NCBI RefSeq assembly: GCF_001306135.1
Contig: NZ_LGKP01000040.1
Location: 216,726 to 280,725 of the forward strand
DNA: 64,000 nucleotides
Direction of reading: 5' to 3'
From: Herpetosiphon geysericola
GTDB taxonomy: Bacteria; Chloroflexota; Chloroflexia; Chloroflexales; Herpetosiphonaceae
Positions within the stretch are counted from its first letter, which is position 1; every line of letters starts with the position of its first letter. Under the pieces are notes generated by a model, which was not told where the DNA came from, searched no databases, and worked only from the letters and a program-made list of their open reading frames with translations. Below are positions 3,991-36,402 of the stretch, one piece after another. Made by a program: the position numbers and the translations under genes.

Positions 3991-4473
3991 ATGCAACAAC
4001 TTATCCTTGCTTGTGGAGTAAATCCATTGGCCCCAATTATTCTAATCTTTGGGACAGCAATGCTGCTATTTATCAGTAATATGACAATTAAATATTTCTT
4101 GCTTGCAAAAACACATCGTTCAAAACGTCGTTCATTAATAATCGATAGTTTGAGCTTGACTTTTATTGAAGGCTTTGTAATCGGCTTGGTTATTCTATCT
4201 GCGACACTTTTACCGAATGTTGTATTTATGACGGAAATTGGATTTTTATTTTCCTATCAAATCATTATTTGGGCACTGTTTTGCATCGTCGATACATTTT
4301 TTATCAAACGTTGGTCAATTCAAACCAAATTTCAAGCGATTAGGCTAGACGACAGTCAACAATTACAGGTTGCGCCAGCACAGCGCACTTATCTACCACC
4401 ATGGGTTGTAGCATTCATATCAAATACATTAATCCTTGGCTTAATTGGCTTATTGTTTTGGATAGTCAATTAG
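3991..4473 (+). CDS. Small polytopic membrane protein, paralogue 2 (low GC)
   Basis: 160 aa. Starts MQQLILACGVNPL and has the DDSQQLQVAPAQ motif. Codon usage is much more AT-rich than paralogue 3. Confidence 0.5.
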   Translation: MQQLILACGVNPLAPIILIFGTAMLLFISNMTIKYFLLAKTHRSKRRSLIIDSLSLTFIEGFVIGLVILSATLLPNVVFMTEIGFLFSYQIIIWALFCIVDTFFIKRWSIQTKFQAIRLDDSQQLQVAPAQRTYLPPWVVAFISNTLILGLIGLLFWIVN

Positions 4474-4492
4474 TTTATAACGCGGAGCAGCA

Positions 4493-4984
4493 ATGCAACA
4501 AGTAATCCTTGCTTGTGGCTATGGTTTATGGCCTCAATCATTTGGCTGGCTCTATTGGTTTATCGGTTTTTGGCTAACGATAGCGCTTGTTATCGTGGTG
4601 AAAGCGTGGGTCTTCCCGCGCAACCAATGGATTCAGCGGCGTGCGCCCATGCTTAAAAGTTTTTTGCTTTTTATGTCGGGGACGAGTGTGAGCATGCTTG
4701 TGTTAAGCGGCATCTATTTTCTTGCCCCAGCCATGTTCAGCAATCGACTTGGATTCGTCCCCACCTATCAACTGGTGTTGCTTGGGGCAATCTGTATTCA
4801 CGATACGCTGATCGTGAACTATTGGCTCAAACAAGGCTATGCCCAAACCATCGGAGTTGATCCAAATCAGCAACTTCAGGTCGAGCCAGCCCAAAGCCAT
4901 TGGTATCAACCGATCGTGCTTGGATTCGGCACTAATCTCATGCTCTTTCTGGTTATTCAGGCATTACTAAGCCTTGCTGGCTAA
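4493..4984 (+). CDS. Small polytopic membrane protein, paralogue 3
   Basis: 163 aa. Starts MQQVILACGYGLW and has the DPNQQLQVEPAQ motif, closely parallel to paralogue 2. Confidence 0.5.
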   Translation: MQQVILACGYGLWPQSFGWLYWFIGFWLTIALVIVVKAWVFPRNQWIQRRAPMLKSFLLFMSGTSVSMLVLSGIYFLAPAMFSNRLGFVPTYQLVLLGAICIHDTLIVNYWLKQGYAQTIGVDPNQQLQVEPAQSHWYQPIVLGFGTNLMLFLVIQALLSLAG

Positions 4985-29933: not shown

Positions 29934-30509
29934 TTAAAAGCTTGCGCTGCATTCCAAGGCCTCGGCCAGCAGTTGTTTATAGTCGCTGCGCGGCATTTCA
30001 TAGGCTCCAAAGGTTGCCAAATGCGGCGTGAGAAACTGGGTATCGAGCAATTGAAAGCCGCCAGCTCGTAAGCGCTCGACCAACGCCACCAAGGCAACTT
30101 TGCTGGCATCGCGCACCTTGCTCCACATACTTTCGCCAGCAAACAAGCCCGCCAAGCCAACCCCATACAAGCCGCCAACCATCTCGCCATTCTGCCATGC
30201 CTCAACGCTATGCGCCAAACCACCAGCGTGCAATTGACTATAAACCTCGATAAATTCTTGGCTGATCCAAGTTTCATCGCGTTCAGCGCAGGCTTGCATT
30301 GTTTCGCGAAACGCCGTATCAAAGCGAATTTCAAAGCTTTGGCGGCGAATCGTGCGTTGCAACGAATGCGCCACGTGAAAACGCTCATCAAGCGGAATAA
30401 TCGCCCGTGGATCGGGATCATACCAATAAATTTGGCCATCCTCGGCCATGGGAAAGACCCCTTGGGCATAGCCATAAATTAATAATTGTGGTGAGAGTCG
30501 CTTGGTCAT
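29934..30509 (-). CDS. aat: Leucyl/phenylalanyl-tRNA--protein transferase
   Basis: MTKRLSPQLLIYGYAQGVFPM...GGLYGVGLAGLFAGESMWS family motifs. I chose the internal Met at 30509 over the ORF-track 30584. Confidence 0.8.
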   Translation of the reverse strand: MTKRLSPQLLIYGYAQGVFPMAEDGQIYWYDPDPRAIIPLDERFHVAHSLQRTIRRQSFEIRFDTAFRETMQACAERDETWISQEFIEVYSQLHAGGLAHSVEAWQNGEMVGGLYGVGLAGLFAGESMWSKVRDASKVALVALVERLRAGGFQLLDTQFLTPHLATFGAYEMPRSDYKQLLAEALECSASF

Positions 30510-30545
30510 GCTATCATGTCTCCAAAAAGTGAGGTCAATCAACCA

Positions 30546-30887
30546 ATGAATACACCACGGGATGTGGCAACCGCCGAACCACAAACGACCACTGATGTCG
30601 AGCTAGATTTTATCACGCTCAGCGATGAGGAATTGGAAAAACCCTATCGGGTGATTTTGCAAAACGATGATATAACCCCCATGGAAGTGGTGGTCTGGGT
30701 TTTGGAAAAGGTTTTTGAGCAATCGTTTGAAAAAGCCAACAGCATTATGCTCGAAGCCCATCTCAAGGGTCATGCCTTGGTCACGATTTTGCCCTTCAAA
30801 GAGGCCAGTTCGCGGGTGTATAGCGCCCAAAGCCGTGCCCGCGATCTGGGATTTCCGCTCGTCTTGTTCCTCGAACCAGATTTTTAA
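30546..30887 (+). CDS. clpS: ATP-dependent Clp protease adaptor ClpS
   Basis: YRVILQNDDITPMEVVVWVLEKVF core ClpS motif. About 113 aa from MNTPRD; MSPKSEV at 30516 is an alternative start. Confidence 0.85.
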   Translation: MNTPRDVATAEPQTTTDVELDFITLSDEELEKPYRVILQNDDITPMEVVVWVLEKVFEQSFEKANSIMLEAHLKGHALVTILPFKEASSRVYSAQSRARDLGFPLVLFLEPDF

Positions 30888-31028
30888 CCGAAGGTTCAGT
30901 TGTTGGGGGCCAGGGGTCAGCGCGTTCGAAGGCTGAAGTGAATTATGCTTGAGCACGCAATTATTCAGCTAGCTGGCCCCTAATCCCAGAAACCTCATCC
31001 TTCATCCCTCATCTTTCATAATTTCGCA

Positions 31029-31086
31029 ACTCTGCGCCTCTGCGTTAAAACTTTTTAGCCACGAATTGCACGAATTCCACGAATGA
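31029..31086. repeat. About 58-bp element (ctctgcgcctctgcgttaaaac...ttagccacgaattgcacgaattccacgaat) that is an inverted copy of sequence downstream of the MVP-like gene
   Basis: Its reverse complement matches about 32803..32866 and again about 33013..33075, with one indel. Contains three CACGAAT motifs at 9-bp spacing. Confidence 0.6.
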
Positions 31087-31306
31087 TCATTTTTTGCCCC
31101 CGATTGCACAGATTATTGCGATTATGTTCCGCTAGCCCATAGCCATTTCCTTGATCCCGCTTCCCCTTTTGCTTTTGACTTCTGCCTTTTGCCCTTTGAC
31201 TTTAGGTTTCATCCTTCATAATTCATCCTTCATTCTTGTAATACATGTCATAGCAATTGTCACAATCGCGGTGTATGCTAGCCCTAGCATAGTAGCGGAG
31301 GACACA

Positions 31307-32695
31307 ATGATTATCCCTTGGATCTACTACGTTCAAGCTGATGAACAATTATTAGTTGAGAGTTTTAGCCGCCGTTGGACGGTCAATGGGCCGCAACGCT
31401 ATACCGCCCGACCATTCGAACGCATTACGCGGCGTAGCGGTTTGGTACTTGGCCCAACCGAATATGTCTATGTCACCGATTCGTTGAGTGGCCAAGTGCG
31501 GCTCGAACGCGGCCCACAACTGCTCTTCCCTAACGCCTACGAAGAGCTTGGCAAAATTCTCTTGGCAATCCCGCTCAAGAAAAACCAATATGCCCGCATT
31601 TTGGATCGTAGCACTGGTCAATTGCGGGTTGAGCGCGGCGAGCAAAGCGTCTATCTCCAACCAAACGAAATTCAAATTGGCGCAATTGAGGCTGGCTACA
31701 ATATCGATGAGCATCACGCTGTTTTGGTGCGCAGCACCACCGATGGCCAATTAAACCTGATTACCACGCCCCAAGTCTTTATTCCCACCGCCGAACAAGA
31801 AGTGATCGAGCATCGCCAACGGATTTTGCTCGAAAACCATGAAGTTGTGGTGATTAAAGATCGCGACGGACGCTATCAATTTCGGCGTGGCAGCCAGCGC
31901 GATCGCTCATTCTTCCTCGAACCATACACCGATTTGGTGACCTTTCGCTGGTCGTCGGGCTTGCACAAAGATAAACGCAATTTGGTCATTACGCATTTGG
32001 ATATTCGGCCAAAATTTATGTGGTATGCCTTCGAGGCGCGCACCCAAGATAATGTCGAGATTTTGATCGATATTACTTTCTTCTGGCAATTGGCCGATGT
32101 TGAGGCCATGATTGTGAGCACCGATGATGCGCCAGGCGATATTTGCGCCCACGCTCGCAGCGCCATCATCCAAGCGGTTTCGCAAACCAGCCTTGAGCGC
32201 TTTTTATCCAATTTCAACAGCATTGTGCGCGATGCGGTGATTGTGCCCGAAGATGATTTTTATGCAGAACGTGGGGTCAAATTGCATTCGGTCGAAGTGC
32301 GCTCAATTACCTGCAAAGACCCTAATACCCAGCGTGTGCTGCAAGAAATTATTCAAGAAACCACCAATCGGCTCAATCGGCTGCAAAAGCAGGAGAGCGA
32401 GAACGAAATCAAGGTCAAGCAACTTGAGGGCGAAATTGTCGCCCAAGAAACCCGTAGCCGCTTGCTCGAATTGCAGCGCCGCATCGCCCAAGCAGAAGCT
32501 GAAACCCACGGTTTGGCCGAGGCCGAACGGGTTCATGCTTTTATCCAAGGCCTCGGCGACGATTTGCCAATCAGCGAAAAGCTGGCGATTTTCAATATTC
32601 TGCGCCGCCAAGAGGCAATTGCAAGCCTCAGCCAAGGTAAGGCCCAGTTGTATCTCACGCCCGCCGATATTAATTTGAGCCTTGAGCATCATTAG
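31307..32695 (+). CDS. Major-vault-protein-like protein: at least 4 MVP-type repeats, an SPFH/band-7-like shoulder domain and a C-terminal coiled coil
   Basis: Repeated about 50-aa units (GQVRLERGPQLLFPNAYEE / GQLRVERGEQSVYLQPNEIQ / GQLNLITTPQVFIPTAEQE / GRYQFRRGSQRDRSFFLEPYTD), then a band-7-like region and a heptad-rich QKQESENEIKVKQLEGEIVAQETRSRLLELQRRIAQAEAE segment. GGAGGA RBS before the Met at 31307; the ORF-track start at 31151 is unlikely. Confidence 0.5.
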   Translation: MIIPWIYYVQADEQLLVESFSRRWTVNGPQRYTARPFERITRRSGLVLGPTEYVYVTDSLSGQVRLERGPQLLFPNAYEELGKILLAIPLKKNQYARILDRSTGQLRVERGEQSVYLQPNEIQIGAIEAGYNIDEHHAVLVRSTTDGQLNLITTPQVFIPTAEQEVIEHRQRILLENHEVVVIKDRDGRYQFRRGSQRDRSFFLEPYTDLVTFRWSSGLHKDKRNLVITHLDIRPKFMWYAFEARTQDNVEILIDITFFWQLADVEAMIVSTDDAPGDICAHARSAIIQAVSQTSLERFLSNFNSIVRDAVIVPEDDFYAERGVKLHSVEVRSITCKDPNTQRVLQEIIQETTNRLNRLQKQESENEIKVKQLEGEIVAQETRSRLLELQRRIAQAEAETHGLAEAERVHAFIQGLGDDLPISEKLAIFNILRRQEAIASLSQGKAQLYLTPADINLSLEHH

Positions 32696-33090
32696 TTAGT
32701 AGTGGCGGTCGGGTATTAGGGATCGGGGATCAGATAGTGGGATTTATTTAACCACGAAGAACACGAAGCGCACGAAGGTTTAAGCTATTGAGTCCCAAAT
32801 GTTTATTCGTGTCATTCGTGCAATTCGTGGCTAAAACGGCTGGTTTTTAACGCAGAGGCGCAGAGCAATGATTGCTTGTGGCTCGTGGCTATTTGAGCCT
32901 TGAGCATCATTAATTAGTAATGGAGGTCAGGGATTAGGGATAGGGGATCAGATAGTGGGATTTATTTAATCACGAAGAACACGAAGGTTTAAGCTATCGA
33001 GTCCCAAATCCTTATTCGTGTCATTCGTGCAATTCGTGGCTAAAACGGCTGGTTTTTAACGCAGAGGCACAAAGCATCGAAGGCTAAATT
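32672..33090. repeat. Tandem direct duplication (two copies of about 195 bp, period about 221 bp) starting inside the last about 25 nt of the MVP-like CDS
   Basis: Copy 1 runs from about 32672 to 32868, and copy 2 from about 32893 to 33088. Both start with ttgagccttgagcatcatta(g/a)ttagta..gg.ggtcgggtattagggat.ggggatcagatagtgggatttattta and contain CACGAAG arrays followed by attcgtg arrays. Copy 2 lacks one 9-bp CACGAAG unit. Confidence 0.75.
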
Positions 33091-33119
33091 ATGAGAGCTG
33101 AAGCATGAAAGTCAAAATC

Positions 33120-33195
33120 CAATAGCCCTTCTTCGTGCTCTTTGCGTTCTTCGCGGTTTCGCGCTTCGTGTTCCTTCGTGCTTTTCGTGGATCAA
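33120..33195. repeat. Additional array of cttcgtg (reverse-complement CACGAAG) motifs at about 9-10 bp spacing
   Basis: cttcttcgtgctctttgcgttcttcgcggtttcgcgcttcgtgttccttcgtgcttttcgtgg, immediately next to the stop of the downstream GT2 gene. Confidence 0.55.
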
Positions 33196-33198
33196 ACC

Positions 33199-34392
33199 TT
33201 ATTGCGCATCCCGACGCTGCACAAACCGAAATTCGCCGCCTTTTTCCACATCCATCACATGGCCGCGCCAAACAATGCGTTGCGGGGCCAGCAATGCCTG
33301 AATCAATTGCACTGGAATTAGCAATTCTAAAAATGGCACAAGCAGCCAATAACGCCGTGGCGTGGATTTAGCAAGATAGTGCTGATCGATTTGGATAAAA
33401 TTCAATAGCCCAAGCAGCGTGTAGATTGCACTAAACCAGCGCTGGCGTTGGCTTGGGCGCACCACAGTCACCACTGCCAAAAGCAAGGGAAACAGGGTTG
33501 GCACAATTACCAAACAAAACAATAAACTACGTTCGCGCCGATTCAAATGGCGCAACAACGATTCGCGCGGAAAGATAAACCAGCGTTGAATTAAGCTGCG
33601 ATAACGCTGAGCATTGGTCACGGTCGTGCGAATTGCATGGCGCATGCTGGTTTGCTGCAAGCCCAAGCCAGCCTGTTTAACCCGCTGGGCCACCGCAAAA
33701 TCGTCGGCCAAAATATGCTCTAGGCCATTGAAACCATCCAATTGCTCTAGCACATCGCGCCGCAACGCATAGAACATGCCATTAATCGTAAATGGCTCGC
33801 TGACTTGAATATAGGGCACATAGGTCAGCAAACTATTGCTATTAACAAACAGCGCCACCAAACTCGACCACGCATTATCAAATGAGCGATAGTAGGGCAA
33901 GCCAAACGCCAAGCCAACCCCCGCTTGATCCAGCCATGGCAAACACGCTTCCAAGCCATAGGCTGGTAGGCTGGTATCATCATCGAGCACGCAAATGATC
34001 TGGCCTTGGGCTTGCGCCAAACCAGCAATCAACTTGAAGGTTTTGGGGTTTACGCGCTCTGCAGGAGCAGGCAAGCTGATAATGCGAATTGTTTGGTTGG
34101 CATATTCTGCTTGCAGTTCGTGGCAAAGTTGCTGCGCTACCGCATCGTTATCATCAATCAGCCACAACCATTCGCGCGCATAGCTGCTTGGCGCATCCAA
34201 GTTGGCGCGTAAACATGTAGATAAATGCGGGTCGCCGCTCAATATTGGCTGAAGCAAACTCACTAAGGTTGTCGCTGGCTCGCGCTGCGATTGAGGCGTA
34301 GGCTTGCGAAAAAAGCGCCAAACTTGCCACCACTTCCAGCAACGTTGACCAAGCATTAAGCCACATAACAGCAACCAAATCCGTTTAATCAT
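33199..34392 (-). CDS. Membrane glycosyltransferase family 2 (ceramide-glucosyltransferase/GT21-like), paralogue B
   Basis: DDDTSLP ... D-x-D-like motifs, an N-terminal TM helix and C-terminal TM segments. I chose the start at MIKRIWLL (34392); the ORF-track start is 34479. Confidence 0.6.
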   Translation of the reverse strand: MIKRIWLLLCGLMLGQRCWKWWQVWRFFRKPTPQSQREPATTLVSLLQPILSGDPHLSTCLRANLDAPSSYAREWLWLIDDNDAVAQQLCHELQAEYANQTIRIISLPAPAERVNPKTFKLIAGLAQAQGQIICVLDDDTSLPAYGLEACLPWLDQAGVGLAFGLPYYRSFDNAWSSLVALFVNSNSLLTYVPYIQVSEPFTINGMFYALRRDVLEQLDGFNGLEHILADDFAVAQRVKQAGLGLQQTSMRHAIRTTVTNAQRYRSLIQRWFIFPRESLLRHLNRRERSLLFCLVIVPTLFPLLLAVVTVVRPSQRQRWFSAIYTLLGLLNFIQIDQHYLAKSTPRRYWLLVPFLELLIPVQLIQALLAPQRIVWRGHVMDVEKGGEFRFVQRRDAQ

Positions 34393-35551
34393 GATTTTGC
34401 TCCTTGCCCAGCCACTGCGCTGCTGCCAAATGCCGCAACCGCATGCGCTCGCCACGCCAAACAATGGTGTCATCGCCAAGCAAGCCCCAGAGCATCAGCA
34501 ATGGGTCAAGCAGTGTTCCCAAAATGCTCAAAGGCCAAGCCCACCACGGCGTTGCTTGTTGGCAATAACGCCGCATTTGCCAAACATGCAAGCTCAATTG
34601 CGCCGCCAAACAGGCCAGCAACCAAGGCCGCAGCTTTGGATTAGGCAGGCTTGCCAACGCCAACAGCGGCGGAATCGGCTGAGCAACGCTGGTCAGGCCA
34701 GTTACGAACTTGTCGCGCTGTTTAAGCTCAGGCAACATCGACACCCGCGGAATTGTAAACCAGCGCTCCATCTGCAAGCCATAGGCCTTGAGAGTGGCAA
34801 AATAATTATCGACTGTGTAGATTAATGGCGTTTGTAGATTGCGTAAGCCATGCGCTTGCACCCGCCGTGCCAACTCATGATCATCATCAATCCGCCCATC
34901 CATTGCTTCAAAACCACCAATTTGCTCAAATACGCTGCGTTGCAAGGCAAATTGATGCCCAGTAATCGTGTATGGCTCGGTCAACGCCGCCAAGCCCACG
35001 TAGCTTGGTAAGGCATTGGCGTTCACAAAATTGCTCATCAACGCAGAAGGCAAATTTTGCCAATTCGTATAACAAGCCAAGCCAAAAATCGCCCCAACCT
35101 GCGACTGCAACAAGTAGGGAATCGCTTGGCGCAAGCCATCAGGCGGCAAGGTTATATCATCATCAACAAACCAGACAACCTCTGCTTGGGCGTGGGCCAA
35201 CGCTGCCCGCATTTTCCCCAATTTCGAGGCTAGGCGGCCCCAATCAGGCTCAATTTGCAAAATGGTAATTGCATGGGTTGGATTATTTTTCTGTAAGGCC
35301 GCGCAGATTGCAAATGTTGCCTGATCAGCGCGATCAACCACCCAGTAATGATTAAGCTGGCCAGAATAGCGCAACTTCAGCCGTTGCTCCAACGTTGTGG
35401 CCAAATCGAACACGCCATGAGTCAAAGGCTGAATTAAATCAATGCTTGGCCAAACAGCGGGTTCGGCAGGCTTGGGCTTGGCAAAAAAACGCCGCAACAT
35501 CAACCAACGCCAGCAACGATCAAGCAAATACCACAGGGCCAACAATCGCAT
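34385..35551 (-). CDS. Membrane glycosyltransferase family 2 (GT21-like), paralogue A
   Basis: VWFVDDDITLPPDGL and other motifs parallel to paralogue B. The start codon shares one base with the upstream hydrolase stop. Confidence 0.6.
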   Translation of the reverse strand: MRLLALWYLLDRCWRWLMLRRFFAKPKPAEPAVWPSIDLIQPLTHGVFDLATTLEQRLKLRYSGQLNHYWVVDRADQATFAICAALQKNNPTHAITILQIEPDWGRLASKLGKMRAALAHAQAEVVWFVDDDITLPPDGLRQAIPYLLQSQVGAIFGLACYTNWQNLPSALMSNFVNANALPSYVGLAALTEPYTITGHQFALQRSVFEQIGGFEAMDGRIDDDHELARRVQAHGLRNLQTPLIYTVDNYFATLKAYGLQMERWFTIPRVSMLPELKQRDKFVTGLTSVAQPIPPLLALASLPNPKLRPWLLACLAAQLSLHVWQMRRYCQQATPWWAWPLSILGTLLDPLLMLWGLLGDDTIVWRGERMRLRHLAAAQWLGKEQNHD

Positions 35552-36402
35552 TATGTCGCCTCAATCTGCGCCAACGCATAATCAATATATTCATCAATTT
35601 GGGCTAGCGAAGCACAATGTTGAGCCTGCGGCACGCGATAATAGCTCGCTGTCGGGTAATACTGGCGCAATAATGCTTGATCGCGCCGCCCAAACAAGCC
35701 ATCGTGTTCAGCCACAATCATGGCCAGTTTGCCATGCCAACGCGCCGCACCCAAATGCCAATCCAGCTCGCGCCACCAACCCAACAAGCTCAGATAATCG
35801 TGGCGTTGCATTTTTTGCAGATTTTGCTGCAACCGCTCAGCCCAAAAAGGCCGCAGCATGGTGGCCATTGGCTGCAAAAATTGCTGAGTGCCGCGCCAAA
35901 ACAGCCAACGCACCAAGCCCAATGGCAAGATCGCGACCAGTGGATGCAGCAAACTGAGCCAAAGCCAACGCCCACGCCGCGGCACGCCAGTATCCGAAAG
36001 CAGCAAGCCTTGGGCCAATTGCGGGCGATAGTGCAACAGGGCTTGGGCAATCAAGCCGCTATACGAGCCAGCCACAATCCAGCCAGCTTCAAATTGCAAA
36101 TAATCGAATAAGGCTTGCAGATTGGCCGCCAAATCTGCGAGATTATCAATTGTGTTGGGGTAGGCGAGGCTAAGTACCCGATAGCGCTGCTGGCAACGAT
36201 CCAGCCAACGAAAAGCCAAATCGGCGCGCGCCAAGCCACCAGGCAAAATCAACAAGCCAGGCAAATTACCGCCAGTATCACAAATTTCCCATTCGTGGCC
36301 GTTGATGCACACCCGTTGCACTGGATAGCGCTCAAGGGTTTGCTGATAACAGGTTTGGCAATCGGCAGCGCTCATTAACTGCTCATACTCATGCTGAATC
36401 AT
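35551..36402 (-). CDS. Alpha/beta-hydrolase fold protein
   Basis: GSYSG nucleophile elbow (G-x-S-x-G). 283 aa. Translationally coupled to the downstream GT2 genes. Confidence 0.6.
   Translation of the reverse strand: MIQHEYEQLMSAADCQTCYQQTLERYPVQRVCINGHEWEICDTGGNLPGLLILPGGLARADLAFRWLDRCQQRYRVLSLAYPNTIDNLADLAANLQALFDYLQFEAGWIVAGSYSGLIAQALLHYRPQLAQGLLLSDTGVPRRGRWLWLSLLHPLVAILPLGLVRWLFWRGTQQFLQPMATMLRPFWAERLQQNLQKMQRHDYLSLLGWWRELDWHLGAARWHGKLAMIVAEHDGLFGRRDQALLRQYYPTASYYRVPQAQHCASLAQIDEYIDYALAQIEAT

Follow-up and report, generated by a model that had tools for sequence, protein, structure and literature searches.

A 64,000-nucleotide stretch of the Herpetosiphon geysericola genome (contig NZ_LGKP01000040.1, positions 216,726 to 280,725; hereafter the window) contains a gene related to that of the eukaryotic major vault protein (MVP), set between intergenic regions dense in short repeats. 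The coding sequence (CDS) of this vault-like gene lies at 31307-32695 on the plus strand, with a ribosome-binding site (RBS), GGAGG, at 31297-31301, and encodes a soluble MVP-like/SPFH protein of 462 amino acids and 53 kDa. The product is an exact match to H. geysericola WP_054537234.1 / KPL80340.1, which carries the NCBI label 'SPFH domain-containing protein'. ClpS is encoded upstream, and a convergent glycosyltransferase gene lies downstream. We asked what the gene encodes, and whether the repeats around it belong to it.

Five MVP-type beta repeats occupy residues ~1-225, as judged from internal alignment and an AlphaFold2 (AF2) model. They are followed by a shoulder/SPFH domain (residues ~226-338), a continuous cap helix of 77 residues in the AF2 model (residues 339-415) and, after the cap helix, a conserved C-terminal motif LY(F/L)TPxD. 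The initial annotation, made from the sequence alone, had proposed four repeats of ~50 amino acids; the repeat motif was confirmed, but internal alignment resolved five units of ~42-47 amino acids each (~43 typical) that share the pattern h-h-h-x-D-x3-G-Q-h-R-h-x-R-G-x-Q...P-x-E. Two Pfam models scored above their gathering cut-offs, Band_7 (PF01145; 30.5 bits vs cut-off 23.6, residues 232-363) and MVP_shoulder (PF11978; 27.8 bits vs cut-off 25, residues 235-317), while Vault_3 stayed below threshold on this protein (18.8 bits, E 0.0018, vs a cut-off of 28.8). In a phmmer search of all PDB sequences, MVP chains were the sole matches (E 2e-7), and the alignment spanned repeats, shoulder and cap helix at an identity of only ~20%; no solved bacterial homologue was among these matches.

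The AF2 model, a monomer computed from 71 homologues, had a mean pLDDT (predicted local distance difference test) of 86.2 and consisted of an all-beta N-terminal half (residues 1-225), an alpha/beta domain and then the helix, with low confidence for the last 20 C-terminal residues. The best 12 Foldseek matches in the PDB were all MVP (E 1e-25 to 1e-18), followed by HflK/C, stomatin and prohibitin (E about 1e-8 to 5e-10); full MVP was matched at E 1e-25, and the crystal structures of MVP R1-R7 at E 2e-9. The predicted fold therefore matches vaults far better than it matches other SPFH proteins, and the order of MVP repeats, shoulder and cap helix first read from the sequence was upheld by Pfam, the PDB sequence search and Foldseek alike. 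The protein has the tandem MVP repeats, the PF11978 shoulder and the long cap helix after the shoulder that characterise the MVP family, together with the SPFH domain (PF01145) of the wider superfamily. It does not have the nine repeats, the ~100-kDa size or the cap-ring domain of MVP, having five repeats and 53 kDa instead. No transmembrane segment or hydrophobic anchor was detected in the 462 residues (maximum KD19 1.55), and the features of a membrane-scaffold SPFH protein, an N-terminal anchor with an NfeD or protease partner, were likewise absent from the protein and its gene neighbourhood. Within the SPFH superfamily, the gene product belongs to the MVP branch, of which it is a short and soluble representative. 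Judging by vaults and SPFH cages, it most likely self-assembles into a ring or cup-shaped shell, a process in which a barrel of cap helices would drive oligomerisation.

Among known systems, eukaryotic MVP (PDB 4V60, 7PKZ, 9BW5) matches best in sequence and, by a wide margin, in structure, with the same order of beta repeats, SPFH-like shoulder and long cap helix. It is, however, ~860-890 amino acids long with nine repeats, whereas the Herpetosiphon protein has 462 amino acids and five; it also has a cap-ring domain, of which none is obvious in the predicted monomer of the Herpetosiphon protein. Bacterial and archaeal homologues of MVP have already been published (Daly 2013, PMC3762200; Sokolskyi 2019, bioRxiv 10.1101/872010), as has an Asgard MVP with five repeats (PMC12962969), and none of these prokaryotic homologues has been experimentally characterised (PMC3762200; bioRxiv 10.1101/872010; PMC12962969). 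They share repeats, shoulder and cap helix with the Herpetosiphon protein, and the Asgard example has the same number of repeats. Unlike them, the Herpetosiphon protein belongs to a short, more divergent family that is centred on Chloroflexota and Cyanobacteria and annotated at NCBI as SPFH only. The membrane SPFH cages (HflK/C, stomatin, prohibitin, flotillin, QmcA-YbbJ) resemble it in combining an SPFH domain with a long barrel-building helix, but they do not have N-terminal MVP repeats, and the Herpetosiphon protein in turn has neither a membrane anchor nor an NfeD or FtsH partner gene.

The initial annotation called this domain order rare in bacteria, which a wider search showed to be an overstatement. 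With a threshold of E<=1e-3 we found 813 family representatives (50%-identity clusters), with the stricter E<=1e-30 there were 187, and a word-indexed search gave >366 family matches. Members range from ~460 to ~960 amino acids and occur in Chloroflexota, Cyanobacteria, Riflebacteria, Wallbacteria and other groups. The vault-like gene is single-copy, with orthologues of >=90% identity in all Herpetosiphon sampled. Across seven orthologous loci and three loci of distant homologues we found no conserved operon partner and no NfeD gene beside the homologues, and near the vault-like gene itself there was no gene for FtsH and none for the vault partners vault RNA, TEP1 or PARP4. Because neighbourhoods are not conserved and no NfeD-type partner is present, the gene stands alone. 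Coming from a cultivable organism, it is a clean example of a short vault-protein relative in bacteria. Herpetosiphon can be cultured and a 53-kDa five-repeat MVP could be expressed, which would allow a test of whether prokaryotic 'mini-vaults' form, a question that bears on the origin of the eukaryotic vault.

The intergenic regions on either side of this gene are of a different nature. Exact triple arrays of CACGAA-N3 lie at 31060 (+), 32753 (+), 32806 (-) and 33015 (-), four observed against 0.00 expected in 100 shuffles. Triplets of CACGAA in 9-bp phase on both strands were thus confirmed, at a count of four exact arrays and not the five or more originally reported. No other locus in the window carries a threefold array of any hexamer at 9-bp phase, and 18 of the window's 38 CACGAA/TTCGTG hexamers fall within the same 2.3 kb. 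Upstream of the gene lies a mosaic repeat (IR-L, 31001-31092, +) made of CATCCYT heptamers, CTCTGCGCCTCTGCG-TTAAAAC, the tag TTTTAGC and a solo CACGAAT x3 arm (31060-31083). IR-L is an inverted copy of 33006-33109 and 32797-32865 (82-100% identity), with arms of 40 nt at 88-90% and 21 nt at 100%; the ~58-bp inverted copy noted earlier is therefore real and longer than first described. It is joined by an array of TCATCCT x3.6 (30993-31019, +), whose word recurs at 31208-31237, and by the pyrimidine-rich heptamer words TTTTGAC/TTTTGCC followed by TTCATCC x4 (31160-31237, +). The short direct repeats reported upstream are present both as these heptamer arrays and as three copies of TCATCCTTCAT (30995, 31209 and 31223).

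Downstream, a first palindrome (copy 1, 32744-32843) reads TTTAAC-CACGAAG x3 (32753-32776), a 29-nt loop and TTCGTG x3 (32806-32829)-GCTAAAAC, and folds as an interrupted hairpin (-31.9 kcal/mol, z -4.0). Next to it lies a two-unit array of period 8, TTTAAC-GCAGAGGCGCAGAG (32845-32865, +), which is 100% complementary to 31030-31050. This segment has been tandemly duplicated (32673-33085). Unit 1 (32673-32890, +) contains the final 23 nt of the CDS together with GGGAT words, the first palindrome and a GCAGAG unit. Unit 2 (32891-33085, +) contains a pseudo 3' end copied from the CDS and the second palindrome (copy 2, 32962-33052), with a left arm reduced to two units (32971-32985, +) and a right arm at 33015-33038. 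The duplication of the 3' end of the CDS had been recognised before, with a period of ~221 bp that proved close: the spacing is 218 bp and then, after loss of one 9-bp unit, 209 bp, and the overlap with the CDS is 23 nt. The two copies are 89-93% identical, and this divergence of 7-11% argues against an assembly artefact. Beyond them, the outer part of the right-hand inverted repeat (IR-R, 33054-33125, +) carries a GCAGAGG unit, ATGAAGC/ATGAGAG words and AAAGTCAAAA, inverted relative to 31001-31050 and 31168-31203. A degenerate array of ~7 CACGAA/CGCGAA/CGCAAA units at ~9-bp phase with the tag TTGATC follows (33126-33198, -; array proper 33126-33190) and is kept in H. llansteffanensis, H. giganteus and NSE202.

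We compared these flanks at seven orthologous loci, reached via members of the protein cluster: H. geysericola, H. aurantiacus, H. llansteffanensis, H. giganteus, H. gulosus, NSE202 and one metagenome contig (L124). The upstream intergenic region measured 182-674 bp and the downstream one 124-606 bp. The only upstream segment kept in all seven, including H. aurantiacus with its different upstream gene, was the ~70 nt before the ATG (31235-31306, +), which contains ATGTCATAGCAATTGTCAC, the palindrome ATGCTAGCCCTAGCAT (31275-31290) and the RBS. This segment is the probable promoter/5' leader, and ATGCTAGCCCTAGCAT, a perfect 7-2-7 palindrome 17 nt before the ATG, could serve as an operator or as a hairpin in the 5' untranslated region (UTR). 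A consensus scan upstream of the CDS gave no plus-strand sigma-70-like site.

The upstream CACGAAT array, in turn, lies at -247 here, at -258 in H. giganteus (three units) and at -333 in H. llansteffanensis (two units). It is absent from the other four loci: from H. gulosus, L124 and H. aurantiacus, and from NSE202, where the neighbouring upstream words are kept. In H. giganteus the upstream words are triplicated with a ~118-bp period (L250 2500-2900), and one of the three copies contains the CACGAAT x3 array. What separates that copy from the array-less ones is a 35-bp indel with the direct repeat TTTTTNGCCAC at its borders, an arrangement suggesting gain or loss of arrays through slippage between short direct repeats.

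The palindrome after the stop codon was more constant. In five species TTTAAC-CACGAAG x2-3, ~29 nt and TTCGTG x3-GCTAAAAC stand 25-60 nt after the stop and fold into an interrupted hairpin of three helices (-32 to -34 kcal/mol; full three-unit copies have z of about -4 to -5.7, the two-unit duplicate has z -2.25). Two compensatory pair changes were seen, including CACAAAG/TTTGTG in H. aurantiacus. Two orthologues lack this conserved hairpin: H. gulosus has no array at all, and the only array at L124 is an unrelated one, TTCGTG/TTCGCG, on the downstream side. H. geysericola alone has the 218-bp tandem duplication, which is absent from the six other orthologous loci, and unit number varies between two and three. 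The suggestion that the region is copy-variable holds for differences between species. The flanks of other Herpetosiphon orthologues also carry elements of the form CCCTCACCCC...GGGCGAGGGG (L248 ~4780-4930, L249 ~4460-4560, L250 ~2395-2450, L251 ~2430-2620), which resemble the TMECO/PIT intrastrand-triplex motif of E. coli (PMC4666352); no such CCCTC...GAGGG element was found in this window.

The same repeats occur far from any vault-like gene. At unrelated loci of H. aurantiacus (L034) and H. llansteffanensis (L069) we found, in intergenic positions, the words CTCTGCGCCTCTGCGTTAAA, CATCCCT arrays, CGCGAAG arrays and full CACGAA palindromes, and at L069 also the heptamer word TCATCCT. From these two unrelated loci, among the matches listed, the repeats would appear to be dispersed within Herpetosiphon. 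A covariance model built from six Herpetosiphon palindrome copies recovered L034 at E 7e-9. At E 1e-6 to 8e-14 it also detected full-length palindromes of Verrucomicrobiota, Acidobacteriota, Planctomycetota, Desulfobacterota and Methylococcales, as well as some on phage contigs, and the two copies described above were its only hits in the window. Conversely, an MVP-like gene was present at 0 of 120 bacterial array-bearing loci among the matches listed, and arrays sought at the loci of more distant MVP homologues were absent. The initial annotation had placed the gene in a repeat cassette of its own; these three observations do not support a gene-specific cassette and agree with the outcome that the annotation itself had named as refuting it, since the same units are dispersed over unrelated loci, phyla and phages with no special link to the gene.

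We therefore considered the arrays as a class in their own right. A scan for CACGAA-N3 x3 yielded at least 120 loci each in a genome set (L001-L120) and a viral contig set (L125-L244). Two control hexamers scanned likewise gave at least 120 matches each, and because they reached the same listed number, raw match counts cannot be used as evidence of enrichment; we rejected them in favour of the outer tag and the inverted partner. In 142 bacterial instances among the matches listed, the base at -1 was C in 92% and that at -2 was A in 62%, with Ts before them, so that CACGAA is preceded by an outer tag TTnAC. For 39% of the bacterial instances and 14% of the viral ones, an inverted TTCGTG array was present 11-132 nt further downstream; the two control hexamers gave 0/122 and 0/119 (0/241 together), again among the matches listed. 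Because tag and inverted partner both lie outside the search pattern, the class is real and not a search artefact. It is found in PVC (Planctomycetes-Verrucomicrobia-Chlamydiae) bacteria, Acidobacteriota, Desulfobacterota, Methylococcales, Chloroflexota, Bacteroidota and phage contigs. The palindrome reaches only 2-3 nt past the arrays, arms are near-identical within a genome and different between genomes, and the T-rich side is 5' and the A-rich side 3' of the element on both strands. The spacers of the two arms are complementary at 61%, compared with 45% for shuffled partners.

A second family carries the same tag. The 18-mer CTGCGCCTCTGCGTTAAA, present in the window at 31030-31050 and 32845-32865, was found in >120 metagenome stretches (L489-L608), where it belongs to tagged palindromes of the form TTTAAC-(GCAGAGN)x2-4 ... 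inverse with period 8. These palindromes likewise bear the TTAAC tag, and they often adjoin other 7-9-nt arrays (GTCAGAA, CTTTGTG, CATGTAG) whose cores resemble CRCRRAG.

In the collections searched, neither family corresponded to a described element. Rfam 15 gave no match at the gathering score in the region, the window or 15 array loci, with only chance-level matches at E<=10, and plasmid blastn of the palindrome returned chance-level matches of 23-33 nt only. The array sequences (CACGAAG..., CGCAGAG... concatemers) were not found in the searched literature, nor did the literature search turn up a paper on REPs (repetitive extragenic palindromic sequences) in Herpetosiphon. The closest likeness is to REP sequences, BIMEs (bacterial interspersed mosaic elements) and REPINs of Proteobacteria (PMC2817692, PMC3116915, PMC3733652), which are also short, extragenic, imperfect palindromes, dispersed and with mosaic flanks, variable between relatives, without target duplications and often 3' of genes. 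However, the arms of REPs are a single palindrome of 20-40 nt, whereas those of the array class are tandem 8-9-nt units; the REP tag is GTAG or CGTC, and here it is TTnAC; and the array-class core, unlike that of REP/BIME, is common to several phyla and phages. Nor was a link to REP-associated tyrosine transposases (RAYTs) seen: no transposase family recurred near arrays among the loci listed, and the only recurrent cargo was the GxxExxY nuclease gene described below. All-versus-all clustering of open reading frames (ORFs) at the 120 array loci listed brought up only sigma-54 activators, ABC ATPases, short-chain dehydrogenases/reductases and kinases, and the orientation of arrays relative to flanking ORFs, from crude ORF calls, showed no significant bias. 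Cyanobacterial short tandemly repeated repetitive (STRR) sequences and TMECO-PIT (PMC4666352) are similar in being short tandem intergenic words, conserved beyond one species, that are associated with locally hypervariable regions; they differ from the array class in sequence and period, and STRR arrays are not tagged inverted pairs. The STRR heptamers were reportedly described by Mazel et al. in 1990. The array class thus appears to be an undescribed class of repeat, spread over many phyla and phages and with a testable link to the GxxExxY nuclease, and it may be of more value than the gene itself.

We favour the view, with a probability of about 0.7, that the locus consists of a conserved stand-alone MVP-like gene and independent hypervariable flanks colonised by dispersed hairpin repeats. 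Short dispersed repeats would have settled in both intergenic flanks as a BIME/REP/STRR-like mosaic, with the tagged tandem-array palindrome (TTnAC, two or three units of CACGAAG-N2, loop, inverse) as its main part. Slippage and recombination among these repeats would have left the solo upstream arm, the differences of two versus three units and the 218-bp duplication as by-products, none of which serves to regulate the vault-like gene. The fixed palindrome behind the stop codon most likely acts as a 3'-UTR/intergenic hairpin between convergent genes, where it would protect the 3' end of the mRNA or insulate the two genes from each other. We rejected an intrinsic terminator as its identity: the U-rich flank lies 5' and the A-rich flank 3' of the hairpin, the reverse of the terminator arrangement, and neither a GC-rich hairpin with a U tract nor any terminator-like plus-strand site was found after the CDS. 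For annotation, the caution is that the eye-catching repeats should be taken as dispersed elements and not as regulation of the vault-like gene.

Several observations weigh against this view. The hairpin is fixed after the vault-like gene in five species, which could mean a gene-specific role. The inverted upstream copy is present in three close species (four with the array-less remnant of NSE202), so that inward-facing arms enclose the gene more frequently than would be expected from a single accident. Only two unrelated Herpetosiphon loci were recovered among the matches listed. Finally, the partial complementarity of the spacers suggests a constraint on the hexamers in addition to base pairing, such as a protein that binds them.

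Where the repeats come from is a separate question, and one answer is compatible with the view just given. An ORF of ~125 amino acids of the PDDEXK_3/TIGR04256 GxxExxY family lay within 150 nt of arrays at 7 of 240 array-selected loci among the matches listed (L111 3154-3588; L092 939-1365; L606; L562; L536; L534; L118), and at four of these seven it stood exactly between inward-facing arms. The association surfaced from ORFs inside palindromes and not from general ORF clustering. In the reverse test, three GxxExxY loci were selected from viral contigs by protein similarity (L609-L611), and all of them were flanked by ~9-bp-phased arrays, in one case CACGAAA x3 and TTTCGTG x3. PDDEXK_3 proteins have no assigned function, are patchily distributed and are reported to have undergone multiple transfers across prokaryotes and viruses (PMC3424549). 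GxxExxY genes between arrays and arrays around GxxExxY genes suggest that the short palindromes may be gene-less derivatives; the arrays would then be the terminal repeats of a small selfish element with a GxxExxY (PDDEXK_3) gene, and the palindromes REP/MITE-like remnants (MITE, miniature inverted-repeat transposable element) mobilised in trans. The near-identity of arms within a genome and their difference between genomes speak for such an origin, as do the presence/absence polymorphism of arrays between Herpetosiphon species and the transfer-prone nature of PDDEXK_3. On the other side, no target-site duplications were found, the PDDEXK_3 gene was not found in the window or any Herpetosiphon locus fetched, and only the 7 of 240 array loci carry it while other ORFs also occur between arms. 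The gene could also be cargo and not the mobiliser. We regard this origin as a real possibility, somewhat short of even odds.

A broader form of the proposal is more tentative still and, on balance, unlikely: the CACGAA (period 9) and GCAGAG (period 8) arrays might together form a cross-phylum, phage-borne superfamily of TTnAC-tagged tandem-array palindromes that are the ends of a GxxExxY-bearing miniature mobile element, with gene-less intergenic hairpins, including the one behind the vault-like gene, as its non-autonomous derivatives. If true, it would provide a first proposed function for the GxxExxY family and a new class of REP-like repeat.

That the 9-bp-phased CACGAA arrays are operator sites for a regulator of the vault-like gene, for example a ribbon-helix-helix protein on tandem sub-sites, is improbable. 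The hexamers are conserved while the spacers vary, three species have arrays both upstream and downstream of the gene, and triple repeats of fixed phase are typical of cooperative binding. The arrays may have a protein-binding role as such. However, the upstream array shifts from -247 to -258 and -333 in the three species that have it and is missing from four of the seven orthologous loci, where the conserved leader is the proximal ~70 nt. The same arrays also occur at unrelated loci, in distant phyla and in phages with no MVP-like gene nearby, and no recurrent neighbouring regulator gene was found. The regulator-binding array put forward in the initial annotation is at odds with both the inconstant upstream position and the arrays at unrelated loci.

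Still less credible is the idea, also raised there, that 31001-33109 is a mobile, inverted-repeat-bounded cassette carrying the vault-like gene, as a composite or MITE-like transposon. Inverted repeats of ~100 bp at 82-100% identity do bracket the gene and its leader, in a topology that resembles the array-gene-array units with GxxExxY genes. However, H. gulosus and L124, which lack the inverted repeats, have the gene in the same syntenic position behind ClpS; it is single-copy and conserved throughout the sampled genus; and its homologues in other phyla have no arrays. No target-site duplications accompany the cassette, and none was found at any boundary offset in 59 elements of the array class, which therefore lack this mark of a MITE despite their inverted arms.

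Equally implausible is a phase- or copy-variable switch of expression within a population: unit number (two or three) and segment copy number do vary from species to species and from one tandem copy to the other, but contigs from independent samples that encode the H. aurantiacus protein showed the same layout and spacing in the three places displayed, with four more similar, the variation does not touch the conserved leader or the CDS, and a repeat-mediated inversion would flip gene and promoter together and so have no on/off effect.

A tRNA scan of the 64-kb window was empty. Immediately upstream of the vault-like gene, a leucyl/phenylalanyl-tRNA-protein transferase gene (-) and clpS (+) are divergent with overlapping 5' ends (29934-30887). 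Of the six other orthologous loci, five have this N-end-rule pair in the same place, and in H. aurantiacus a TetR/NmrA pair stands there instead. On the other side, two tandem paralogous genes of the Glyco_transf_21 family and a 283-amino-acid ORF (33199-36402, -) converge on the vault-like gene, and the first of them (33199-34479, -) ends with its stop codon abutting the degenerate array.

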